Source: Candidatus Pacearchaeota archaeon (GTDB lineage Archaea; Nanobdellota; Nanobdellia; Pacearchaeales; GW2011-AR1). Taken from it: a stretch of DNA of 64,000 nt. Shown here in pieces: positions 360 through 12,264 of this stretch (positions within the stretch are counted from its first letter, which is position 1; each line of letters begins with the position of its first letter). A program made the translations under genes and the position numbers. The stretch spans positions 11,746-75,745 of the forward strand of contig JAGVXG010000001.1 in the NCBI GenBank assembly GCA_018303885.1. The letters run 5' to 3'. The notes under the pieces were generated by a model. It was given only the letters and a program-made list of their open reading frames with translations. It made no database searches and was not told where the DNA came from.

Positions 360-584
360 TTACTTCTGAATTTGTCTTGCAAGCCAAACAATGAAGAGAA
401 CTAGAGCAACTAAAATTAAAACTCCATAAAGCCAGCCAAAAAACATCATTCCAGAGCCATAGGTTCCGTACATCATTCCCATCATTCCGCCATATCCACC
501 GAAGCCCATTCCAACCCCGCCAAATATCAAAACTAAAACTGCTACTATGACAATTACCCAAACCATTGTTTCATTGTTTTTCAT
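360..584 (-). CDS. Small Gly/Met/Tyr-rich membrane protein (paralog of 3256..3483)
   Basis: 74 aa; TM helix - GGYGGMMGMMYGTYGSGMM - TM helix, ends ...QIQK; close paralog 2.9 kb away shares MKNN..W.I..VAVL start and QIQK end. Confidence 0.5.
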   Translation of the reverse strand: MKNNETMVWVIVIVAVLVLIFGGVGMGFGGYGGMMGMMYGTYGSGMMFFGWLYGVLILVALVLFIVWLARQIQK

Positions 585-881: not shown

Positions 882-2888
882 TCAAATCTTCTTCCTTCTC
901 AAAAGATTTGCATTTGTCACGACTGTTATTGATGAAAGAGCCATGGCTATCTCTGCAACAATTGGATGAAGCAAACCCGCGACAGCGACAGGAATCGCGA
1001 CTATGTTATATGCGAATGCCCAAAAAAGATTTTGTTTTATTTTTTTGAAAGTTGCCTTGCTTAGATTTATTGCCTGAACAACACCTACAAGAGAGCCACG
1101 CGCCAGAACAATATCTCCTGATTCTATTGCAATATCTGTTCCTGTTCCCATTGCAATTCCAACATTGCTTTGCTTTAGCGCAGGAGCGTCATTAATTCCG
1201 TCGCCGATAAAAGCAACAAATCCTGATTTTTGCAATTCTTCAACTTTTCTTGCTTTGTCTTCTGGAAGAACATTTGCTATGACTTCTGAAATTCCACATT
1301 CTTTTGCTATTGCCTTAGCAGTTTTTTCATTGTCTCCTGTAATCATCATTGTTTTATATCCTTGCTTATTTAATGAGGCAATCGCTAATATAGAATCTTC
1401 TTTAAGAGCATCTGCGACAGCAATAATGCCTATTACTTTTCCTGATTCTGCTACAATCATCGTTGTTTTTCCTTCTGACTCAAAGTCTGAAATTCTAGAC
1501 TCAAAATTCTTAAAAGAAATTTTCTTTTCGTTCATTAGTGTTCTATTACCAATAACAATTTCACTTTTTCCTATTTTTCCTTCGACACCCCTGCCCCTTA
1601 AAATCCTAAAACTTTTGACTTCCTTATATCTTCTTAATTTTGCCTTTTCAACAATTGCTCTTGCAATTAGGTGCTCGCTCAGTTTTTCAAGAGACGCAGC
1701 AATTTCTAGAAGATAATTTTCCTTGACGCTTGATATTATATTTGTGACTTCTGGCTTTCCTTTTGTGATTGTTCCTGTTTTGTCAAAGACAACTATCTTA
1801 ACATGCTTCATTGTCTGCATTGCCTCTCCCTTTCTTATTAGGATTCCATGCTTGGCACCCATTCCAGAGCCGACCATCAAAGCGGTTGGTGTTGCCAAAC
1901 CGAGGGCACAGGGGCATGCAATAACAAGAACAGAAACACTTGCGGCGATTGCTCTACTTAAATCAGAGCTAAAATAAAACCAACCAACGAATGTCAGGAT
2001 TGCAAGAACTAAAATTGATGGAACAAAAATACTAGTGATTTTATCTGCTAAAACCTGGATAGGAACTTTTTCACTCTGCGCTTCTTCAACAAGTTTTATT
2101 ATATGCGCCAGGAATGTGTCTTTTCCGATTTTTGTTGCTTTAATGTAAAGAATTCCGTCTTGGTTTATCGTAGCACCTATCACATTTGAGCCTTTGGTTT
2201 TTTCAACAGGCAGGCTTTCTCCAGTAACCATAGACTCATCAATACTGCTTTCTCCTTTAACAACGATTCCGTCTGTTGGAATTTTTTCACCTGGTTTAAC
2301 AATAAGGACATCGCCAATTTTAATTTCGGAAACGTCAACTTCAAATTCTTTATTGCCCTTTAAAATTCTTGCTTTTTTTGCTCCGAGCTCAAGAAGTTTT
2401 TTAATTTCCTGGCTGGCTCTTCCACGGGCTTTGGCTTCCACATACTTTCCAGTTATGTAAAAAGCCATAATCATTGCAGCAACTCCTGAATAATCCTGGA
2501 TTGAAGAAAACAAACTGAATAAACCAGTTAAATAAGCAACAAGAGTTCCCAGAGCAATAAGAGAATCCATATTAAAATAAAATGTAAACAACCCTCGCAT
2601 TCCTCCCCTAATCGTCGACCATCCAAAGATAAAGAGAACCGGGAAACCTATTGCTAGAATAAGGAAGGTAGTGTACTCCATTGAAAAAAATTGAATTCCA
2701 AAAATCCTTTCTGATAACATAAGAAAGGCAACAGGGACTGCGAAAATCCAAGATCCAGTCATCTTTCTTTTCCATTCATCTATCTCTTCGTCTTCTATTG
2801 GAGCATCGTGGTGATGCTCTAAATCGATCACGCTTGGGCGATTTTCTTTGTCCATTCTCATTTTGTGTTTTTCGTGTTTGTGTTGCAT
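882..2888 (-). CDS. copA: Copper-translocating P1B-type ATPase (CopA), His-rich N-terminus, no fused HMA domain
   Basis: 668 aa; CPC motif [12 protein letters not shown], phosphorylation site FDKTGTIT, hinge [12 protein letters not shown]-like TGESLPV; N-terminal [10 protein letters not shown]...HHH. Confidence 0.9.
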
Positions 2889-3003: not shown

Positions 3004-3222
3004 TTATTCAAATTCCACTGTTTTTGCTTCATAACCTGCTCTTTTGACAGCTTTTTTTAATTCATCTTCTGAAACAGAATCTTCACATTCCGCGGTTCCT
3101 TTTTTCAGCAACAAAGACACGTTTGCGTTATTTACACCAGGTGTTTTGCGCAAACTTCTTTCTATGTTTGAAGCGCATGAAGCGCAGTGCATTCCATGAA
3201 TTGTTATTTTTGCTTTTTTCAT
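3004..3222 (-). CDS. copZ: Heavy-metal-associated (HMA) copper chaperone, CopZ-like
   Basis: 72 aa; GMHCASCASNIE (MxCxxC) ferredoxin-like HMA fold. Confidence 0.8.
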   Translation of the reverse strand: MKKAKITIHGMHCASCASNIERSLRKTPGVNNANVSLLLKKGTAECEDSVSEDELKKAVKRAGYEAKTVEFE

Positions 3223-3255: not shown

Positions 3256-3483
3256 TTATTTTTGAATTTGTTTGACTAGCCAGGCAATGAATAGCACTAA
3301 AGCAATAACAACAAGAGTCATGAAAAGCCAGCCAAAAACCCACATCCCACCCCAATTCATCATATTATTATAGCCCATCATTCCACCATATCCCCCATAT
3401 CCTCCCCAACCCATGGTGAAACCTAAGAAGAGAAGAACGGCAACCGCAATAATAATCCATGTTAAAGCCTGATTATTTTTCAT
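3256..3483 (-). CDS. Small Gly/Met/Tyr-rich membrane protein (paralog of 360..584)
   Basis: 75 aa; TM - GWGGYGGYGGMMGYNNMMNWGGM - TM, ends ...KQIQK; overlaps ArsR stop by 4 nt (operon). Confidence 0.55.
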   Translation of the reverse strand: MKNNQALTWIIIAVAVLLFLGFTMGWGGYGGYGGMMGYNNMMNWGGMWVFGWLFMTLVVIALVLFIAWLVKQIQK

Positions 3484-3860
3484 TTTTCCTTACCCCCTTT
3501 CATATTATGTAATATATGAATACAATAAAGAGACATGTGCTTATCTATCAATTCAATTAATGGCTTTATTGTTTCTTCATTTAGCCAATAATAGCGGAAT
3601 TTGCCATTAACCTCGACATTAACAAATCCACATCTCTTTAACCTAGATAAATCGTGCGAGACAGAAGTTTGGTCCATTTTCAACTCTTTCATAATTTCAG
3701 AAACATTTTTCTTTCCGCTTCTAAGTAAATTAATAATTCTTAACCTTGATTCAGAGACTAACGTTCCAAAAAATATTTTATAGGCGTTATAGACATCAGA
3801 CTCTGCAAGGTGTTCATGATGTTTATGCTCAAAATGCTTTAATATAGATTTGCTTATCAT
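3480..3860 (-). CDS. ArsR/SmtB-family metalloregulatory transcription factor
   Basis: 126 aa; wHTH ...RLRIINLLRSGKKNVSEIMKELKMDQTSVSHDLSRLKRCGFV..., His-rich N-terminus; first gene of cop operon. Confidence 0.8.
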   Translation of the reverse strand: MISKSILKHFEHKHHEHLAESDVYNAYKIFFGTLVSESRLRIINLLRSGKKNVSEIMKELKMDQTSVSHDLSRLKRCGFVNVEVNGKFRYYWLNEETIKPLIELIDKHMSLYCIHILHNMKGGKEK

Positions 3861-3885: not shown

Positions 3886-4341
3886 TTAAATATTTCGCTT
3901 CTTTAAGAAATATAAACTGGTCAGCAAGATAATAACAACTAAAACCTGTATTTCAATTCCCTGAAAAGGCAGAGAAGCAAAGGAAAAACCTATTCCAAGT
4001 AATCCTAGGGCTAAAGGAACAAGCCCTGTAACACACAAAGGGCAAACACCGACAATCAAGCCACCAACACTTCCTGCTCCGGCCAAGACTTTACCCTCTT
4101 TACATTTTTTTCTTTCTTTGTGTAAGATATAAACGTAGACTGCATTCAGGGCAACCAAAAACCCAATAGCTAAAGTTAAAACCAAAGATATTCCTAATCT
4201 AAACCAGTCAACAGTTGAAGCGTATAAAATAATCAAAGGAATTGTGTTATCAAATCCACTGATGAAAATGTTCAGAACTAAATATAAAATAAAAATTGCA
4301 AAAAACCAATATAAATATGGCTCCTTAAAAATTCTTTTCAT
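3886..4341 (-). CDS. Polytopic membrane protein with intramembrane CPLC motif
   Basis: 151 aa, about 4 TM; GVCPLCVTGLVP in TM helix. Confidence 0.45.
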   Translation of the reverse strand: MKRIFKEPYLYWFFAIFILYLVLNIFISGFDNTIPLIILYASTVDWFRLGISLVLTLAIGFLVALNAVYVYILHKERKKCKEGKVLAGAGSVGGLIVGVCPLCVTGLVPLALGLLGIGFSFASLPFQGIEIQVLVVIILLTSLYFLKKRNI

Positions 4342-4343
4342 TT

Positions 4344-4727
4344 TTATTCCACTATGATGGTTCCATAGCCCATTCCCATAGAACAGGCAAATCTAAATGT
4401 TCCTTTTTTTGTGGGGGTAAAATCAATTGTCTCACTTGGGGTTTTCACATACTTTGAAACACCAAGGTCTTTTATTGTGAAACTTCTTAAGCAGCCTGTG
4501 ACAGATTTATCAAGAGTTATACTTACGGGTTTTCCAGATTGCACCTTTATTGTATTCGGATAATAGTTGTAGTCTTTTGTTCCTAATACAACTTTTTGGA
4601 CTTCTCCTTGAACAACATTTTTCGGAATATCTGTATTTTCTTGAGTTGTTCCCCCCTTCAGAAGAAGAAACCCTGCAATCGCTATTAAAATAAAAATGCT
4701 AATCATATAAAAAATATTTTTTGCCAT
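4344..4727 (-). CDS. Cupredoxin-like (Cupredoxin_1 family) secreted copper protein
   Basis: 127 aa; N-terminal signal anchor; ...KVQSGKPVSITL...TGCLRSFTIKDLGV...GTFRFACSMGMGYGTIIVE matches cupredoxin_1 pattern. Confidence 0.6.
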   Translation of the reverse strand: MAKNIFYMISIFILIAIAGFLLLKGGTTQENTDIPKNVVQGEVQKVVLGTKDYNYYPNTIKVQSGKPVSITLDKSVTGCLRSFTIKDLGVSKYVKTPSETIDFTPTKKGTFRFACSMGMGYGTIIVE

Positions 4728-4730
4728 TTT

Positions 4731-5414
4731 TTATTGGAACAACAAGCTCCTTGGTCCAAAAACCATAAACCATGTTGTTACTGCAGTGAGCATGAAACTC
4801 CATGAAATTGTGAAAAATTCATTATCTTTGTGTTTTCTTTCCATTTCTCTTGTTTCAGTATATATCATATAATTCAATCCAAAGAGAATAAATCCTGAAA
4901 TCATGAAAACAACCGCTCCCGCAACCCTTAGATTGTCATTGAGCATCATTATAGCTGTCATTCCACCCATTATTCCACCCATGAAGCCAGCCATCATTCC
5001 TTCCATTGCCCCCATTATTCCACAGCATTTTCCATTCCATACGCCAAATAAAATTCCAAAGGACATTCCGACAACACTTCCCCAAAACATTCCATTAGTA
5101 GAAGCAATAAAAAACCCAGGCAAAAATCCAGAGATCATTCCTATTGTCATTCCTATCATCATTCCAGACATGCATGAAAATTCCTTATAAGCTCTGATAT
5201 GCTTTACAGAAAGCAGAATAAGGGAGTAGCTTAGTACAGCAAAAAACAAGAAAAACCCGTATTTTGGAATAAAGTTCTCGATGTATCTAAGCCTGACAAA
5301 AAAAAGAATTCCTAATAGGATAAACGAGGTGACTAGTGAAACGAAAATGGTTTTAACTAACTCGCCTTCAACTTTGTCGTTATTCAGTGATTTTATGAAA
5401 TCTTTTACAGGCAT
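4731..5414 (-). CDS. Met/Gly-rich polytopic membrane protein
   Basis: 227 aa; repeated GMxxGM motifs (MSGMMIGMTIGMISG...CCGIMGAMEGMMAGFMGGIMGGMTAIMM). Confidence 0.5.
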   Translation of the reverse strand: MPVKDFIKSLNNDKVEGELVKTIFVSLVTSFILLGILFFVRLRYIENFIPKYGFFLFFAVLSYSLILLSVKHIRAYKEFSCMSGMMIGMTIGMISGFLPGFFIASTNGMFWGSVVGMSFGILFGVWNGKCCGIMGAMEGMMAGFMGGIMGGMTAIMMLNDNLRVAGAVVFMISGFILFGLNYMIYTETREMERKHKDNEFFTISWSFMLTAVTTWFMVFGPRSLLFQ

Positions 5415-5861: not shown

Positions 5862-6071
5862 TTAAGTCAAACATTCCCTGTATATATTCGGATGATGACT
5901 CATGTGCTCTCTCCAGGATTCTTCAGTGTAGCCCGGTGCTGGCTTGCACTTTTCACTTGCTATTTTTCCAGAATCTTTCCAAGCCTGAATAACTCCTGGA
6001 AAAAAAGTTAACACTAATAGCCCGATGATTAATAACCCTGCTATTATGTATAATATTATTTTTTTGTCCAT
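5862..6071 (-). CDS. Small membrane-anchored protein
   Basis: 69 aa; N-terminal TM, C-terminal Cys/His residues. Confidence 0.35.
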   Translation of the reverse strand: MDKKIILYIIAGLLIIGLLVLTFFPGVIQAWKDSGKIASEKCKPAPGYTEESWREHMSHHPNIYRECLT

Positions 6072-6536
6072 TTAATGATACGAAACCCCCAAATTTTTCA
6101 TCTTTCTTTTATGTTTAATCATAATAGAGATTCCAATTAAATTAGACAACAATCCAACACCCAGAAACCACTTTTGATATGCTGTTAAAAAAACTGCAAT
6201 CCCAGAAAGCCCAACAATAGGAATAATATTCAGCAAAAAATGGCTGCAGCATGCAATCATGCTTCCCGCAGAAACACCTCCTGTTCCAGCAACTGTTCCA
6301 GTAAGTGCGGCAGTGTGCTTAATAGAAGCATAAAGCCCGATTTGTGTTCCAAACCCTGCTGCAAGAGGGAAAATTAAATACCACAAACTTCTTAGGTTAA
6401 GGAAGGCAAAATCAATTCCTTGAAAAATCGAGACAACTGTTAAGTAAAATAATAAAAGTCCAAGCCCTGCAAGAATTCCATACAATACTGAATTGTTTTT
6501 CACCACTTTTTTATTTTTTACCATTTTTTGCAGCAT
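6072..6536 (-). CDS. Hypothetical membrane protein
   Basis: 154 aa; 4 TM; IACCSHF motif. Confidence 0.45.
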   Translation of the reverse strand: MLQKMVKNKKVVKNNSVLYGILAGLGLLLFYLTVVSIFQGIDFAFLNLRSLWYLIFPLAAGFGTQIGLYASIKHTAALTGTVAGTGGVSAGSMIACCSHFLLNIIPIVGLSGIAVFLTAYQKWFLGVGLLSNLIGISIMIKHKRKMKNLGVSYH

Positions 6537-6985
6537 TCTATAAGTTTAGTTGAAAAAGTTTTGAATTTTTTATTAGTTCTAAATAAATAAATCAATAGGA
6601 AAATTAGCCATAATGCTATTATAAAAATCAAGCTGCTAAGACTAAAACTTTCTAGAATAAAATATATGGCAAAAATAAATGTTAACAATAAAGGCAGTCT
6701 AAAAACTTTGAATTTTTCTTTGGTTTTTTTCTCCCATAGATAAAAAATGCCAAGAGAGGTGTGCCCCATCAATATTGCTATTATGGTTTTATCTATGAAA
6801 ATGTTTAGAAAATAAGATATTAAAAGTAAAACCCATACGAGAGTAATTGAAATGCATATTGCACAAAACTTTTTTAGATTAAAGATATTTTTCAGTACTA
6901 ATAGTATAAAAAACAGTATAACAATTCCTATTAATACTGTTGTTATTGTATCCATTAGATTATTTTCCTCCCGGATTCTTCCCAC
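6518..6985 (-). CDS. Hypothetical membrane protein
   Basis: 155 aa; polytopic; overlaps neighbours at both ends (operon). Confidence 0.4.
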   Translation of the reverse strand: MGRIREENNLMDTITTVLIGIVILFFILLVLKNIFNLKKFCAICISITLVWVLLLISYFLNIFIDKTIIAILMGHTSLGIFYLWEKKTKEKFKVFRLPLLLTFIFAIYFILESFSLSSLIFIIALWLIFLLIYLFRTNKKFKTFSTKLIECCKKW

Positions 6986-7863
6986 GCATTCATTCCACCG
7001 TCTAAGTCATAAATCTTTTGATAACCCATTTCCTTAAGATCTTCGGCTACGGCTTCTGACATGCGCCCGCTTCTGCAATAGACAGCTATGGGAATAGAAG
7101 TATCCTTAGGTAATTTGTCCATATACTTTTCAATGTTTTCCCAATCTTCAATTATTTCATCAGTTCCATCAATTTGACCCTGATAAGGAGTATGAACATT
7201 TAGTAAAAAAACACCTTCGTTCTGAATGACTTTCTCAAATTCGCTCGGAGATAAACGCTCAATCGATCCTGTTACAACACCACTTCCCAAATTTGTCAAA
7301 CTAAGTTGTATAATTCCTCCAGCTATTATTAATAATAAGAGTGTTAATATAACTCCTTGAAAAGGAATTAGTTTTCCTTTTCTTAATTTAGTGAGGGTTT
7401 TGCTTAATTTTGGAGACGAAAGTACCAAAATTCCTCCTAAAGCACTTGATACCAAAGAGTAATTAACTGCATATGTTTTTCCGTATTCTCCGATGAAAGA
7501 GAGGTATAGTGGCCCTATAGCTTTGAATAGTGGAATCAAAGGGATTACTGTAGTCAAAAATATTAGTAAAATAATTATAGTTTTCTGAAATGGTATGTAT
7601 CTTTTTTTAGGGATTTTTGAAAACCACATTCCCATTGACATTGCAAAAGCTCCAATAAACAAAGCAACTACTACCTTACTTACGCCAAGCCAGATTGCAC
7701 CAACTCCGGCTGCTCCAGCCCCGATTGTACATAGAGGGCAGTGTGCAGAAACTTGTTTTACTAAGAAAATTGCTAAAACTGTTAAAACAGGAAAGATGAA
7801 AATTTTTTTTTGCATTTTATCTGATGAAACTAAATACCAATAAAATAACGAGGAGAATAACAA
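6955..7863 (-). CDS. Membrane protein with CPLC motif and C-terminal rhodanese (sulfurtransferase) domain
   Basis: 302 aa; SAHCPLCTIGAGAAG in TM1; C-terminal ...VYCRSGRMSEAVAEDLKEMGYQKIYDLDGGMNAWEESG rhodanese active-site loop. Confidence 0.7.
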   Translation of the reverse strand: MLFSSLFYWYLVSSDKMQKKIFIFPVLTVLAIFLVKQVSAHCPLCTIGAGAAGVGAIWLGVSKVVVALFIGAFAMSMGMWFSKIPKKRYIPFQKTIIILLIFLTTVIPLIPLFKAIGPLYLSFIGEYGKTYAVNYSLVSSALGGILVLSSPKLSKTLTKLRKGKLIPFQGVILTLLLLIIAGGIIQLSLTNLGSGVVTGSIERLSPSEFEKVIQNEGVFLLNVHTPYQGQIDGTDEIIEDWENIEKYMDKLPKDTSIPIAVYCRSGRMSEAVAEDLKEMGYQKIYDLDGGMNAWEESGRKII

Positions 7864-7974
7864 TGATCCACATTAACCATGAACTTTTCTTCTCTGAGTT
7901 ATTTTGGTTATGACTCTCGTTACTGTTTTGCTTTCCATGCGAATGACTCGAATGATTTCCGCAGCAGCTCATTT

Positions 7975-8454
7975 TTATATCCTTATAAATTCGCTGTAGC
8001 TTCCGTCATAGTTTACAGCGTAAATTACGAAGGCGCCTTGCTTTTGACCAGGCATTCCCGGGCTTCCCGAAGGCATTCCAGGCATTGCAATTCCTGCTAT
8101 ATCTGGCTGTTCTTTAAGAAGTTTTTCAACAGCTTCTAAAGGAACATGCCCTTCAATGAAATAATCTCCAACAATTGTAGTATGACAGCTTTGGAGTGCA
8201 ATAGGAACGCCATATTGCTTCTTTATTTTGTCAGAGTTCTGAATGTCGATAATGTTTACTTTAGTGGAAACTTTTCCATCGACGTAACTTGAATAAACAT
8301 CACAGCATCCGCAAGTTAAAGATTTGTATATGTCTACTTTCTCGGCGTTGTTAATATTTTCAAAAGAAGCCGCGCCAGAACCCTTTGAAAATAAGAGGAC
8401 TGCTGCTAAGAAAATAAATACTATTACTATTCCGAACAATAAACTTTTTTTCAT
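7975..8454 (-). CDS. DUF411 / CopG-like copper-binding protein
   Basis: 159 aa; signal anchor; CxCC motif (TCGCCD), QSCHTTIVGDYFIEGHVP, Met-rich GIAMPGMPSGSPGMPG. Confidence 0.75.
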   Translation of the reverse strand: MKKSLLFGIVIVFIFLAAVLLFSKGSGAASFENINNAEKVDIYKSLTCGCCDVYSSYVDGKVSTKVNIIDIQNSDKIKKQYGVPIALQSCHTTIVGDYFIEGHVPLEAVEKLLKEQPDIAGIAMPGMPSGSPGMPGQKQGAFVIYAVNYDGSYSEFIRI

Positions 8455-8458
8455 GTTA

Positions 8459-8722
8459 TTAACATCCTCCTACCATTCCGCCAGAAGATCCGGCTGACGT
8501 GCTAGCTTTTCCCACACGAGAAGGAATTGTTCCGTGCATTTCATAATTCATTATTTCGTTCTCTGTCCAACCAGTTGTGTCTATTTTTGCGTTTAATTCT
8601 GAAATTGAAGCTCCTGTACCTGAAGACCCTAATTTAAACGCAAAAAAAACCGCTATTAAAAATAATGCTCCAATAACTGCCCACAATACTATTCTTCTTT
8701 CCATTTTAATCAAAATTAACAA
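8459..8722 (-). CDS. Small membrane-anchored protein ending in -SSGGMVGGC (likely start at internal MERRIVLW)
   Basis: 87 aa; TM anchor; C-terminal tail SAGSSGGMVGGC shared with two adjacent genes. Confidence 0.55.
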   Translation of the reverse strand: MLILIKMERRIVLWAVIGALFLIAVFFAFKLGSSGTGASISELNAKIDTTGWTENEIMNYEMHGTIPSRVGKASTSAGSSGGMVGGC

Positions 8723-8985
8723 CCTCCGACCATTCCACTAGATGAAGCTGCGCTTGCTGCAGCATTTGTTGTAGAACCTATACTTTCAGCTCCAACATTG
8801 CTTCCTGTTTGGAATATAAGATACAAAGCAGCCAAAAACAAAATTCCTATAGCAACCCACAACACCATTCTTCTTTCCATTTTAAAATTCCCTCCTTTCA
8901 TTTGGCTTTCAGACGAATGACCCATTTCTGTTTTCTTTAAGTCTTTACAACATCCATGGTCTTTTTTTGTTTTGCAAGATTCCAT
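8716..8985 (-). CDS. Small membrane-anchored protein ending in -SSGMVGGC; N-terminal Cys/His-rich segment
   Basis: 89 aa; MESCKTKKDHGCCKDL..., TM anchor MERRMVLWVAIG, tail AASSSGMVGGC. Confidence 0.55.
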   Translation of the reverse strand: MESCKTKKDHGCCKDLKKTEMGHSSESQMKGGNFKMERRMVLWVAIGILFLAALYLIFQTGSNVGAESIGSTTNAAASAASSSGMVGGC

Positions 8986-9068
8986 TTTATTTTTTTCTCC
9001 TATGTTTATTTTTAATTTTAAAAGGGGAAAAGGAGGTAAGACTTGTAAAAAATAAAGTAAATTTCATC

Positions 9069-9740
9069 TTAACATCCTCCGACCATACCTCCCCCGCTTG
9101 TTTTACCTTGTTCGATCCCACGATAAAGATTGCTTGCAAGGTTAATGTAATCTGTAGAATCTATTCCATTGGCTTCAAGGGCTTTGGCTTTTTGCTCATG
9201 GACTCCTGGAAAGAAAAGAACTTTCCATTTTCCGAGCTCACTCAAGATTTCTATATCAGTCATGTCAGGATGATTGGTAAGAAGGTATTTTGCCAATCCC
9301 CTCATTGCATAACTGTGCGCGCATCCACAGGCTCTTTGCCCGTTTGTAAATATTATCGATTTAGCGCCACAGCAATACTCGCAACTTATTGAGCCCCCTA
9401 TTCTGATATAACGAGTCATTGTCGCGTTGTCTAACTGCATATCCTCATATGCTGTCAATTTTTGAATTGTCGCATCAGCCAGTCCTGGATTATCTGCAGA
9501 AACATCATCATAACTAACTCCCAATTCTTCACCATAAACAGCCGGCACTCCTTTTGGAATTATGCTAGAGGCAGAAACTTCGCTGATTCCTGTTGCAAGT
9601 CTTGTTTCAGAGTTTCCGTAAGTCTTTCCAAGATTAAATGCTATTACCAAAACCAAAATAGCGATGACGCCTATTTGGAAATAGAGTTCAACATCGGTTT
9701 TTCCCCCTTTCATTTCTTTAGGGTTTTTTTCGTTTTCCAT
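9069..9740 (-). CDS. Membrane-anchored Cys-rich protein ending in -SGGGMVGGC
   Basis: 223 aa; signal anchor; CEYCCGA and ACGCAHS cysteine clusters; same C-terminal tail as the two downstream genes. Confidence 0.55.
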   Translation of the reverse strand: MENEKNPKEMKGGKTDVELYFQIGVIAILVLVIAFNLGKTYGNSETRLATGISEVSASSIIPKGVPAVYGEELGVSYDDVSADNPGLADATIQKLTAYEDMQLDNATMTRYIRIGGSISCEYCCGAKSIIFTNGQRACGCAHSYAMRGLAKYLLTNHPDMTDIEILSELGKWKVLFFPGVHEQKAKALEANGIDSTDYINLASNLYRGIEQGKTSGGGMVGGC

Positions 9741-9802
9741 GATTTATTCAAGAATTAGTTTGTTATAACCGCTTTGGTGAAACTGGTTTCATTGACGAGA
9801 AT

Positions 9803-10285
9803 CTAATCTTTTAGAACAACAATATTATTCATTCCACGCCTTTTTCTTTCAATTAGTTGTTTGGCTTCAAGTTTGTCGAGAAGTCTTGTTGCCTTGACTT
9901 TGCCTATTTCCAGTTTCTCCATAAGAGTTGATTGGAACATTGCATTCCCTTCTTTTAAGATGAGGTCTATGACTTTTCTTTCGTCTTTATCAAGATTCTC
10001 CAAATCTAATTTCCTTTTTCTTTCTTTAACTTTTTTGACAACAATCTTCTCTTTGGGTTTTGTAAATACTAAAACCAATCCAATTATCATTAGAAGACCC
10101 ACTATGCCAAGAGACAGATATGTTTGTTGGTTTATGCCTTCATTCATAGGACAAGAAATTGAATGCTCTTCTGCGGTACAGGTTGAAGCTACTACATCTT
10201 TTAATGCACTCTGAAACAGAAATATTATTCCTATGAGTAAAATAGCAATTCCCATAATCAAAAACCCAACATGCTTATTTTCCAT
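9803..10285 (-). CDS. Membrane-anchored winged-helix transcriptional regulator
   Basis: 160 aa; TM1 - CTAEEHSISCP loop - TM2 - cytoplasmic MarR-like wHTH (ERKVIDLILKEGNAMFQSTLMEKLEIGKVKATRLLDKLEAKQLIER). Confidence 0.55.
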   Translation of the reverse strand: MENKHVGFLIMGIAILLIGIIFLFQSALKDVVASTCTAEEHSISCPMNEGINQQTYLSLGIVGLLMIIGLVLVFTKPKEKIVVKKVKERKRKLDLENLDKDERKVIDLILKEGNAMFQSTLMEKLEIGKVKATRLLDKLEAKQLIERKRRGMNNIVVLKD

Positions 10286-10327
10286 GAATTAGGGTTAAAT
10301 GTTCCGTTTATATACTTTTTTAAAATG

Positions 10328-10963
10328 TCAAGCAGAAGTGAACTCTATGACTATTTCATCGCCATCACGCATTATATGATTTTCAAACTGCTGGCTTTCT
10401 TGCCCATTAACTGACATTTTTAGTGTACTATTGCTTTCAGTGCCGATGCAATTTTCAAATATACAAGTAGAGTTGAAAGTTTTATTCCATATTTGGAAGA
10501 ATTCTCCAATTGTAAAGTCTCTGGCATAAGGCCCTTCAATATGAACTTCTCCTGAAGAATCATGCGTATGCAATGGCCTCATTATTCCTGTTTGAATTCC
10601 TATGTCTGCTGGGATTGGGAAACCCTGATTGTTTATTTTAATTTCTAAGTCTGAATGAATGTGCAATGCTATATTTTTATGGCTTCCAATATTTATCTCA
10701 GAAGCAGGAAGATCATCAAAAGAATTTGAGCTGGTCATTAAAAAATAAACTCCAAAAATAACCAATCCAAGAATTAAAATAAAAATAACCCAGTTCCTGG
10801 TTTTTTTAACCGGAAAGCGTTTCTTATCTTTTGGAACTTTTTCAGGATGTTTTGCTGCGCCATGCATTTCTAAAGCTTCTTTACTGCCGAAAATTCTGTT
10901 GCAAGATTCACATTTGAATGTTTCTTCTTTTGTTTCCATTTGATATGAAATTTTCTGCTTCAC
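10328..10963 (-). CDS. C2H2 zinc-finger, single-pass membrane protein with extracytoplasmic domain
   Basis: 211 aa; N-terminal FKCESCNRIFGSKEALEMHGAAKH (C2H2), then TM, then His-rich beta-type domain. Confidence 0.5.
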   Translation of the reverse strand: MKQKISYQMETKEETFKCESCNRIFGSKEALEMHGAAKHPEKVPKDKKRFPVKKTRNWVIFILILGLVIFGVYFLMTSSNSFDDLPASEINIGSHKNIALHIHSDLEIKINNQGFPIPADIGIQTGIMRPLHTHDSSGEVHIEGPYARDFTIGEFFQIWNKTFNSTCIFENCIGTESNSTLKMSVNGQESQQFENHIMRDGDEIVIEFTSA

Positions 10964-11529: not shown

Positions 11530-12264
11530 TTATTTTATTGAAGCTATTGCTGCTTCAAATTGAGTCCAAGGATAAGCTCCAGAAATCACAGTTGATTTAT
11601 CAGTTTCCGTGTTAACAATCACGAAGAAAGGAGTTCCTTGCCCGCCGGCTGATGTAGCTTGAGCAGTTTCCTTTGATACCTCAGAGGCGAATTTTCCGTT
11701 GTCTAAGCACGCATTAAATTGTGCTGTGTTGAGTCCAAGTTGTGAAGCATAGCCATTTAAATCGGTCACAGTTAATTTTGCTTGATTTTCGAACATCATA
11801 TCATGCATTTCCCAAAACTTTCCTTGCTCACCTGCACACAAAGAAGCTTCTGCGGCTTTCTGTGCATAAGGATGTATTGAATTTAATGGAAACTGTTTGT
11901 AAATAAGATTGACTTCTCCATTTGTGAAGTAACTGCTTGCTTTGAAATCTGCTATAGCACCAGAATATGCTCTCTCGCAAAATGGGCACTGGAAATCAGA
12001 GAATTCCAATATAGTAATTCCCGCGTCTGCGTTTCCCAGGACAGGATCATTATTCTCGATGAGGGCTTTTGCATTTATTGGTGCTTGATCATTTGTTCCG
12101 GTGTCTGTTGTGTCCGTGTTTGTGTTTCCAGAGCTACCATCATTTCTTAAAAGAAAAAATCCTCCTATAATAACTACGGCGAGTAATAAGAAAGTAGCGT
12201 ATTTCCACAAATCGCTTTTCTTTACTGTTATTGTTTTTTCTTCTTCTGACATTTTATAACTCAT
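11530..12264 (-). CDS. DsbA-family thiol:disulfide oxidoreductase, membrane anchored
   Basis: 244 aa; TM anchor; thioredoxin fold with CPFC active site (FSDFQCPFCERAY). Confidence 0.75.
   Translation of the reverse strand: MSYKMSEEEKTITVKKSDLWKYATFLLLAVVIIGGFFLLRNDGSSGNTNTDTTDTGTNDQAPINAKALIENNDPVLGNADAGITILEFSDFQCPFCERAYSGAIADFKASSYFTNGEVNLIYKQFPLNSIHPYAQKAAEASLCAGEQGKFWEMHDMMFENQAKLTVTDLNGYASQLGLNTAQFNACLDNGKFASEVSKETAQATSAGGQGTPFFVIVNTETDKSTVISGAYPWTQFEAAIASIK

Follow-up and report, generated by a model that had tools for sequence, protein, structure and literature searches.

Three adjacent genes end in the same cysteine tail

We analysed a 64-kb stretch of the genome of a Candidatus Pacearchaeota archaeon (the window, meaning the whole stretch; G+C content 34.6%), in which three consecutive genes on the minus strand encode membrane-anchored proteins that end in the same peptide, G-M-V-G-G-C. 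The genes, here assigned to families A, B and C, and their tail codons lie as follows.

9069..9740, minus: family A gene, 223 amino acids (aa); N-terminal transmembrane (TM) anchor, Cys-rich CcmH-like domain, disordered linker, tail ...TSGGGMVGGC
9069..9089, minus: tail codons G-M-V-G-G-C plus stop, family A (DNA pattern match)
8716..8985, minus: family C gene, 89 aa; Cys-rich, predicted-cytoplasmic N-terminus MESCKTKKDHGCCKD, TM, Ala/Ser/Thr linker, tail ...ASSSGMVGGC
8716..8736, minus: tail codons plus stop, family C (DNA pattern match)
8459..8722, minus: family B gene, 87 aa; TM, Met/His motif DTTGWTENEIMNYEMHGTIPSR, Ser-rich linker, tail ...GSSGGMVGGC
8459..8479, minus: tail codons plus stop, family B (DNA pattern match)

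An earlier note, made from the letters alone, had reported the common tail of these genes, an N-terminal anchor in each product and the clusters CEYCCGA and ACGCAHS in the 223-aa protein, all of which we confirmed. Each protein has one N-terminal hydrophobic helix, TAA follows directly after the terminal Cys codon in all three genes, and the pattern GGN-ATG-GTN-GGN-GGN-TGT-TAA occurs three times in the 64-kb window versus 0.00 times expected from 100 dinucleotide-preserving shuffles, with no further window open reading frame (ORF) carrying it. The note had also described the tail as one DNA string present at all three genes; the 18-mer ttaacatcctccgaccat (plus strand) is indeed exact at 9069, but the copies at 8716 and 8459 are each one synonymous base off.

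The three bodies had likewise been called dissimilar, which does not hold for the two small proteins. A 52-nt direct repeat, 81% identical, connects positions 8658-8709 with 8834-8885 and spans the part of the 87-aa and 89-aa genes where the TM starts (MERR(I/M)VLW..IG.LFL). Their products also fall into one BLAST cluster, so the two genes are tandem paralogs with divergence confined to the linker. In the 87-aa protein B, the Met/His motif EIMNYEMHG sits between the TM and the tail. Because most B homologs (among 120) begin MERR.., the true start of B is likely the ATG at 8704, which would give a protein of 81 aa.

Several smaller features accompany these genes. A motif (M/L)KGG stands just ahead of the TM in both A and the 89-aa protein (8880-8905 and 9700-9715). 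In the 89-aa gene, AAAGGAGGG stands 8 nt upstream of an internal ATG (MERR...), from which many homologs are annotated, making possible a short isoform without the Cys-rich N-terminus. Just past the stop of gene A lies a 26-aa ORF, MKFTLFFTSLTSFSPFKIKNKHRRKK (9036..9066, minus), which starts 8 nt past the GGAGG within the tail of A and is probably spurious.

The tail is conserved as a peptide

Protein A has 1868 database homologs, all of them unnamed and from Pacearchaeota, Woesearchaeota or "Nanoarchaeota". Among the best 120 of these 1868, 115 end in MVGGC and the others in QVGGC, QVGNC or QVGSC; MVGGC is kept in 114 of 120 B homologs and in all 116 homologs of one protein of a further, D type (described below), the named ones being Woesearchaeota or Nanoarchaeia. 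This retention of the tail in conserved homologs indicates that the window genes are real and coding. Codon usage was counted in 169 tail genes from related loci. Val is encoded by GTC (67), GTT (65), GTA (25) and GTG (12), Cys by TGT (102) and TGC (67), both Gly positions use four codons, and the stop is TAA in 131, TAG in 23 and TGA in 15. Because the residues are fixed while synonymous sites and stop codons vary, we conclude that the tail is under selection as a peptide.

These counts also bear on the idea that the repeat is a nucleic-acid feature, namely an embedded Shine-Dalgarno site (GGAGG) serving translational coupling, or an artefact of assembly or duplication. In the window, a GGAGG does lie inside each tail, 8 nt ahead of a possible downstream start. 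Across the 169 genes, however, the first tail Gly is GGA in 96 (57%) versus a background of 51%, GGAGG occurs within only 96 of the tails, and the gap to the next gene is variable, ranging from overlap to >300 nt, which refutes a Shine-Dalgarno origin; Met, Val and Cys are moreover invariant, although such a site needs none of them. The presence of the tail in hundreds of independent assemblies and in distant homologs rules out an artefact. A search for RNA elements returned no Rfam match within 7800..10500, and we give an origin of this kind practically no weight.

The motif extends further upstream in distant relatives. An exhaustive profile search with A against 1.84 billion representative proteins recovered only 294 relatives, the most distant full-length ones still being tailed, with Leu-Pro (LP) preceding the conserved residues (...EFPEFLPQMVGGC, ...NLPNMVGGC, ...LPSQVGGC). 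Of the superfamily representatives (clustered at 50% identity), 108 are complete at the C-terminus; 77 of these carry [MQ]VGGC and most others a one-residue variant, and only about five lack a terminal Cys at, or a few residues from, the end. As judged from these sequences, the full motif is L-P-x-(M/Q)-V-G-G-C-COOH, longer and older than the window suggests, and S-G-G-M-V-G-G-C would be a shortened form in the window's Pacearchaeota lineage. Neighbouring tails form 142 M/M and 2 Q/M pairs, numbers that are uninformative on co-variation.

Sources of the motif comprise Pace-, Woese-, Micr- and Aenigmarchaeota and one bacterial metagenome-assembled genome (MAG). The bacterial carrier (L204:10001-11416, Desulfobacterales MAG DRHF01000376.1) consists of a signal peptide, an FKBP domain, an A domain and the end ...LQEMPNMVGGC, so that domain and tail have moved together behind FKBP. 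Its contig is genuinely bacterial, with RND efflux and hybrid histidine kinase genes as neighbours, and because the FKBP-A-tail protein sits there, its presence suggests lateral spread of the domain-plus-tail unit beyond archaea.

As a short invariant C-terminal motif on otherwise unrelated surface proteins, the tail resembles the PGF-CTERM/archaeosortase and LPXTG/sortase systems, and the LP of LPxMVGGC adds a superficial likeness to LPXTG. Unlike those sorting signals, it ends at a free carboxylate, with neither a TM helix nor a basic tail behind it. Nothing follows LPx(M/Q)VGGC-COOH, no sortase family occurs among the Pfam-annotated neighbours, and the NCBIfam sorting-signal models for PGF-CTERM and PEF-CTERM, which require a trailing helix, gave no match; the earlier note was thus right to set the tail apart from these two signals, no NCBIfam or Pfam model matching it. 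Its author had not recognised the tail as a described motif, and our searches agree: neither the curated models nor the literature searched for the motif, archaeal C-terminal cysteine tails and DPANN CopG/DUF411 yielded anything relevant.

Many carriers consist of a helix, a linker and the tail

To place the three genes in context, 80 genome loci were fetched around A homologs, all from DPANN archaea, and form the basis of all counts out of 80 below. Nearly every locus holds 2-4 adjacent tail genes, and the 80 loci contain 57 C-type relatives of the same build. Metagenome contigs were also scanned, irrespective of protein family, for DNA that encodes L-P-x-M-V-G-G-C-stop; this gave at least 120 loci (LP-type), with zero chance matches among the matches listed. 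The matches listed include 185 tail ORFs, namely 86 A proteins, 98 small proteins and one 138-aa protein of TM-linker-tail build. The D type consists of one TM, the sequence VQAxQLxxLK, a linker rich in Ser, Gly, Ala and Thr, and the end ...LPSNLxNLPxMVGGC. Pooled small carriers (B, C and D type) have a single TM and a linker with a median of 47 residues, again rich in Ser, Gly, Ala and Thr, and many carriers are without any domain beyond TM, linker and tail. The Cys codon is followed directly by the stop in about 780 pooled carriers.

N-terminal extensions of at least 15 residues are present in 87 small carriers, 37 having at least 2 Cys and 10 at least 3 His, and some are zinc-finger-like. 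Because these extensions are Cys- or His-rich or resemble zinc fingers, the carrier N-terminus is argued to be cytoplasmic and the tail is predicted to lie outside.

A tail-less protein of related appearance is encoded in the window at 5862..6071 (minus). This 69-aa TM protein contains 'VIQAWKDSG' and 'YTEESWREHMSHHP', ends ...YRECLT, and resembles the bodies of tail carriers at loci L067 and L071 ('VQAWQISALK...SYEEMMARMHPDQ').

The Cys-rich domain of family A resembles CcmH in fold and is coupled to the tail

AlphaFold2 models residues 55-213 of A confidently (mean predicted local distance difference test score, pLDDT, 79), and the modelled domain has the three-helix-bundle periplasmic fold of CcmH and NrfF (PF03918). 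The invariant cysteines of A form CxYCC and CGCxHS, not LRCxxC, and the likeness to CcmH is one of fold rather than of family membership. In the AlphaFold2 model of an LP-type A protein, the tail reaches a pLDDT of 74-79, which hints that it packs on the A domain. In database terms the proteins are without a family: A, B and C gave no Pfam match and no NCBIfam hit at E<=0.1. Protein A did not match the PCYCGC family (PF13798) at E<=0.1, and a separate PCYCGC protein is encoded in 18/80 related loci. None of the three tail proteins matched DUF411 (PF04214) or an HMA/CopZ domain, the only HMA in the window being that of 3004..3222.

The domain and the tail are tightly coupled. Flanking sequence is sufficient for 128 A-like ORFs, and 120 of them bear the tail themselves. 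In a tail-less subfamily, A2 ("...WYALWYPKGTIERII"), a tail-only D gene is directly adjacent in four loci; in a fifth tail-less case (L143), a tail ORF, identified by pattern match and reading frame, appears to lie about 0.7 kb off and to have been missed by the automated count. Locus L010 encodes a tail-less A paralog fused to a CPxC membrane domain of the type of window gene 3886..4341, and in some Pacearchaeota (L010, L022) both module types stand side by side. The A domain never stands without a tail, be it in cis or in trans, and we therefore propose the tail as its working partner or substrate.

The second, paralogous module of these genomes occupies L010:15828-17279 and L022:14586-17897. 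Its parts are the CPxC membrane domain (fused or separate), tail-less A2, a Met-rich protein (MMGGGMMDMM...) and a D-type tail-only protein; in L022 a triple thioredoxin is added, and the sequence of L010 stops with the D gene. Close to the L010 module lie genes for a BlaI/CopY-type repressor and a BlaR1-like M48/M56 peptidase.

The fold raises the question of cytochrome c maturation. The reductive branch of System I likewise combines a membrane electron importer (DsbD_TM/CcdA), an anchored thioredoxin-like protein and an anchored CcmH-fold domain, and there, as proposed here, the CcmH-fold domain acts on a short Cys peptide of a flexible chain. The tail could then be a haem-carrier arm within a genuine Ccm-like module. 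CcmE, too, is anchored at its N-terminus, and its C-terminal region is flexible and reactive. Unlike System I, however, the tail loci have no CcmH sequence match, their clusters are CxYCC and CGCxH instead of LRCxxC, and the presumed substrate is a single C-terminal Cys encoded in the same operon or chain. No haem machinery or c-type cytochromes were found nearby in the approximately 200 loci searched: among 3022 ORFs, none encodes a WWD-domain or multi-CXXCH protein and only 9 have even a single CXXCH, and no Ccm or Ccs Pfam family appears in the annotation of loci L201-L204. We regard a true cytochrome c maturation module as very improbable.

Tail genes lie in a copper and thiol-redox island

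In the window, the tail genes belong to an island between 882 and 12264 whose genes all share one strand and whose junctions are short or overlap. Its other genes are the following.

882..2888, minus: CopA-type P1B ATPase (Pfam; motifs CPC, YN, MxxSS)
3004..3222, minus: CopZ-type HMA metallochaperone with GMHCASC (Pfam HMA)
3480..3860, minus: ArsR-family regulator
3886..4341, minus: membrane protein with CPLC within a TM (c10 type)
4344..4727, minus: membrane-anchored cupredoxin-like protein (Pfam Cupredoxin_1, 52 bits)
4731..5414, minus: Met-rich polytopic membrane protein, in 24/80 loci
6072..6536, minus: membrane protein with ACCSHF motif, in 51/80 loci, often in several copies
6518..6985, minus: membrane protein with CxxC and a weak VKOR-like hit (E 0.004, below the Pfam cut-off), in 29/80 loci
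6955..7863, minus: polytopic membrane protein with conserved AHCPLCT and a C-terminal rhodanese fusion, family in 63/80 loci
7817..7972, minus: 51-aa protein, MSCCGNHSSHSHG... followed by a TM, cluster in 7 related loci
7975..8454, minus: membrane-anchored DUF411/CopG-like protein with invariant CGCC (CxCC) (Pfam PF04214, 89 bits), in 47/80 loci
9803..10285, minus: two-TM protein with cytoplasmic winged helix (MarR/DUF7343; Pfam), upstream of A in 68/80 loci
10328..10963, minus: C2H2-like zinc finger, TM and predicted-outside His-rich domain (HIHSD...HTHDSSGEVHIEG), c18 family, no Pfam domain
11530..12264, minus: membrane-anchored DsbA-like thioredoxin with CPFC (Pfam Thioredoxin_4/DSBA)

Pfam and coordinates bear out the context that had been read from the letters (DUF411, a rhodanese membrane protein, a membrane winged helix-turn-helix protein, CopA and CopZ). 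The motifs CPC, YN and MxxSS are the signature of Cu+-transporting P1B-1 ATPases, and by these motifs the window CopA is assigned to the Cu+ type. The membrane winged-helix protein has two conserved Cys in a predicted outside loop (STC-x9-SCPM); it is probably the regulator of the cluster and has the appearance of a one-component system that senses copper or redox state outside the cytoplasm. Rhodanese, by contrast, was rejected as a core partner: the AHCPLCT family has a median length of 176 aa without rhodanese versus 302 aa in the window, the fusion being peculiar to the window's lineage. A DUF1573-rhodanese protein is encoded near the tail module in L202 and L203.

Two gene orders recur. 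The window type runs membrane winged-helix protein, A, small tail proteins, DUF411/CopG (directly after the tail genes), AHCPLCT protein and CxxC/ACCSH membrane proteins. An HMA, cupredoxin or CopA cluster is present in 42/80 loci and DsbA in 22/80, with ArsR, DsbA-like, PCYCGC, DUF302 and Met-rich membrane proteins, the last encoded near the tail genes, among the other neighbours. The earlier note had proposed a database search for tailed homologs and their neighbourhood; it shows the tail conserved and the copper context strong and recurring across lineages. In the LP type, A is followed by D, then by a membrane-anchored protein that contains three CxxC repeats of thioredoxin-like type, and then by DsbD_TM/CcdA; A is upstream of D in 48/70 cases and the triple thioredoxin downstream in 30/75. 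The c18 family occurs in 40/120 LP-type loci among the matches listed, often flanking the triple-thioredoxin gene on both sides.

In most lineages, the nearest partners of the tail genes are the triple-thioredoxin protein and CcdA, and because of this the case for a role in thiol redox is no weaker than that for a pure copper chaperone. The tail might act purely as a thiol-disulfide relay or tethered thiol buffer, with no direct metal role, its Cys being a redox shuttle that, although tethered to the membrane, would correspond to a low-molecular-weight thiol or to mobile Cys arms. CcdA, the triple thioredoxin and the CcmH-like domain would then recycle the Cys, and surface proteins would be protected in organisms that make no small thiols. 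Besides these nearest partners, the CcmH-like fold of A, the DsbA- and VKOR-like genes of the island and a module (L201) without CopA within 10 kb fit such a relay. It leaves aside, however, the copper genes linked in 42-47 of the 80 loci and the DUF411 gene directly after the tail genes, as well as the Met/His or Cys motifs in carrier bodies and N-termini, and redox chemistry alone needs no conserved Met or Gln at position -5. We consider a metal-free relay possible, though on the unlikely side.

The Scs system of Salmonella, Proteus and Caulobacter (ScsABCD) couples the two functions: a DsbD-like protein feeds thioredoxin-like proteins of the envelope, and the system is copper-induced, confers copper tolerance and includes members that bind Cu(I) (PMC10907172, PMC8900818). 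Here too, genes for CcdA and thioredoxin-like proteins accompany those for CopA and CopG, and DsbD_TM and the triple thioredoxin adjoin the tail genes in LP-type loci, although both are absent from the 64-kb window. Apart from the general folds of thioredoxin and DsbD, the proteins nevertheless show no homology to ScsA-D; Scs has neither a common C-terminal Cys tail nor a CcmH-like domain, and the proteins described here are tethered ones of archaeal cells bounded by a single membrane. CopG (DUF411), whose gene is linked to copA, uses its CxCC motif to bind a Cu4 cluster; its cysteines are clustered outside the cytoplasm (PMC7558416), as is predicted for family A. Unlike family A, CopG has a thioredoxin fold and no MVGGC tail, and the tail carriers do not match DUF411.

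A proposed flexible thiol arm for copper and thiol homeostasis

We tentatively favour a reading in which the tail is a flexible extracytoplasmic thiol arm on membrane-tethered proteins of a DPANN copper/thiol-homeostasis island and works with the CcmH-like domain. The arm would sit on the same chain as that domain or be supplied by the neighbouring 'TM, linker, tail' proteins. By analogy with DsbD/CcdA, CcmG, CcmH and apocytochrome, reducing power would enter through CcdA-type membrane proteins and pass by way of the membrane-anchored triple thioredoxin to the CcmH-like domain, which could keep the terminal Cys reduced or exchange with it. Once reduced, the arm might capture Cu(I) released by CopA through its Cys thiolate together with the Met or Gln at -5; the same Met/Gln alternation is seen in the axial ligand of type-1 copper sites. 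The arm could then hand copper among tethered partners (CopG/DUF411, cupredoxin, Met/His-rich motifs) and, alternatively or additionally, resolve copper-induced disulfides.

Mobile Cys or Sec arms that shuttle metals or electrons include the C-terminal HCH of Ctr1, the C-terminal Cys pair of MerA and the GCUG of thioredoxin reductase. Like these, the tail is short, C-terminal and flanked by Gly; it would be mobile, and its terminal thiol would carry a metal ion or redox equivalents to a partner site. Those arms each belong to one family, whereas here one arm stands on at least 4 unrelated bodies, including arm-only proteins.

Several observations weigh against a copper/thiol arm partnered by a CcmH-like domain. 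The outside topology leans on a weak charge bias (+1.15 vs +0.58) and on analogy, and AlphaFold2 predicts the tail of the window A protein to be disordered (pLDDT 36-48). For the A domain, a Foldseek search against the PDB gave no match, a profile search of PDB sequences returned no CcmH and only spurious TM matches, and Pfam CcmH (PF03918) does not match A, whose motif is CxC/CxxCC rather than LRCxxC. The 64-kb window encodes no triple-thioredoxin or CcdA homolog, and the L201 module, as noted, has no CopA within 10 kb. Finally, the invariant V-G-G exceeds what a metal or thiol arm needs and points to a specific pocket or a tail-recognising enzyme.

Since a simple ligand role leaves the invariance of V-G-G unexplained, it is the main argument for reading the tail as a signal for recognition or processing. 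The invariant MVGGC-COOH would be bound by a dedicated enzyme or receptor, which would modify the Cys covalently or dock the carriers on one membrane hub; the Cys would be an attachment point for a lipid, a cofactor or a cross-link to S-layer or host surface, not a free ligand. Five residues and the upstream LP are invariant on unrelated bodies across phyla, a pattern typical of signals that an enzyme recognises but unusual in tails that bind metals, whose sequences tend to vary. Many carriers have only TM, linker and tail, and the co-encoded conserved membrane proteins (AHCPLCT, ACCSHF and CPxC types) could supply the enzyme. On the other hand, the hydrophobic or basic segment that follows known sorting signals is absent, no sortase, archaeosortase, rhombosortase-like or known lipid-transferase family occurs among the Pfam-scanned neighbours or the Pfam hits of L201-L204, each locus has only 2-4 substrates, all within the island, and the carriers are already anchored in the membrane by their N-termini. 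On this balance we judge a dedicated signal rather unlikely. A specific form, in which the CcmH-like domain and the CxxC membrane proteins covalently load the Cys of the arm-only proteins (with persulfide sulfur, a cofactor, a lipid or an S-layer or host link), we also hold to be unlikely; if true, it would be a DPANN-wide envelope system without counterpart among described sorting, lipidation and carrier systems. A modification or carrier site would constitute a new class of C-terminal signal.

If the favoured copper/thiol arm is correct, it would be one of few examples in which arm-only proteins provide an invariant arm in trans. The motif, the A family and the arm-only proteins are without description in Pfam, NCBIfam or the searched literature. 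The surrounding components are of known kinds; what appears new is one invariant C-terminal Cys arm on unrelated bodies, also supplied in trans, and we see only a small chance that it is something categorically different, for example a carrier arm or modification signal. DPANN archaea are abundant, but few have been cultured, and functions have been assigned to only a minority of their envelope proteins. The present analysis defines a compact, easily recognised module across several DPANN phyla (CcmH-like Cys-rich domain, arm-only proteins, CopG, CxxC membrane proteins, triple thioredoxin and CcdA), provides testable hypotheses for about ten 'hypothetical' families and suggests how single-membrane cells might handle copper and thiol stress outside the cytoplasm. 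The peptide is short (about 9 residues) and amenable to synthesis and direct testing.

Further small membrane proteins of the island

Two other kinds of small protein are encoded in or beside the island. The tail-less 51-aa protein at 7817..7972 carries a cytoplasmic head rich in Cys and His; mini-proteins like it (MNCCQVKDDCSLC...) are found at other sites. A membrane protein of ~75 aa with a Gly/Met-rich loop (GGYGGMMGMMYG) is present in two copies in the window (360..584 and 3256..3483, both minus); its family is found in 23/80 related loci, beside ArsR and CopZ genes.

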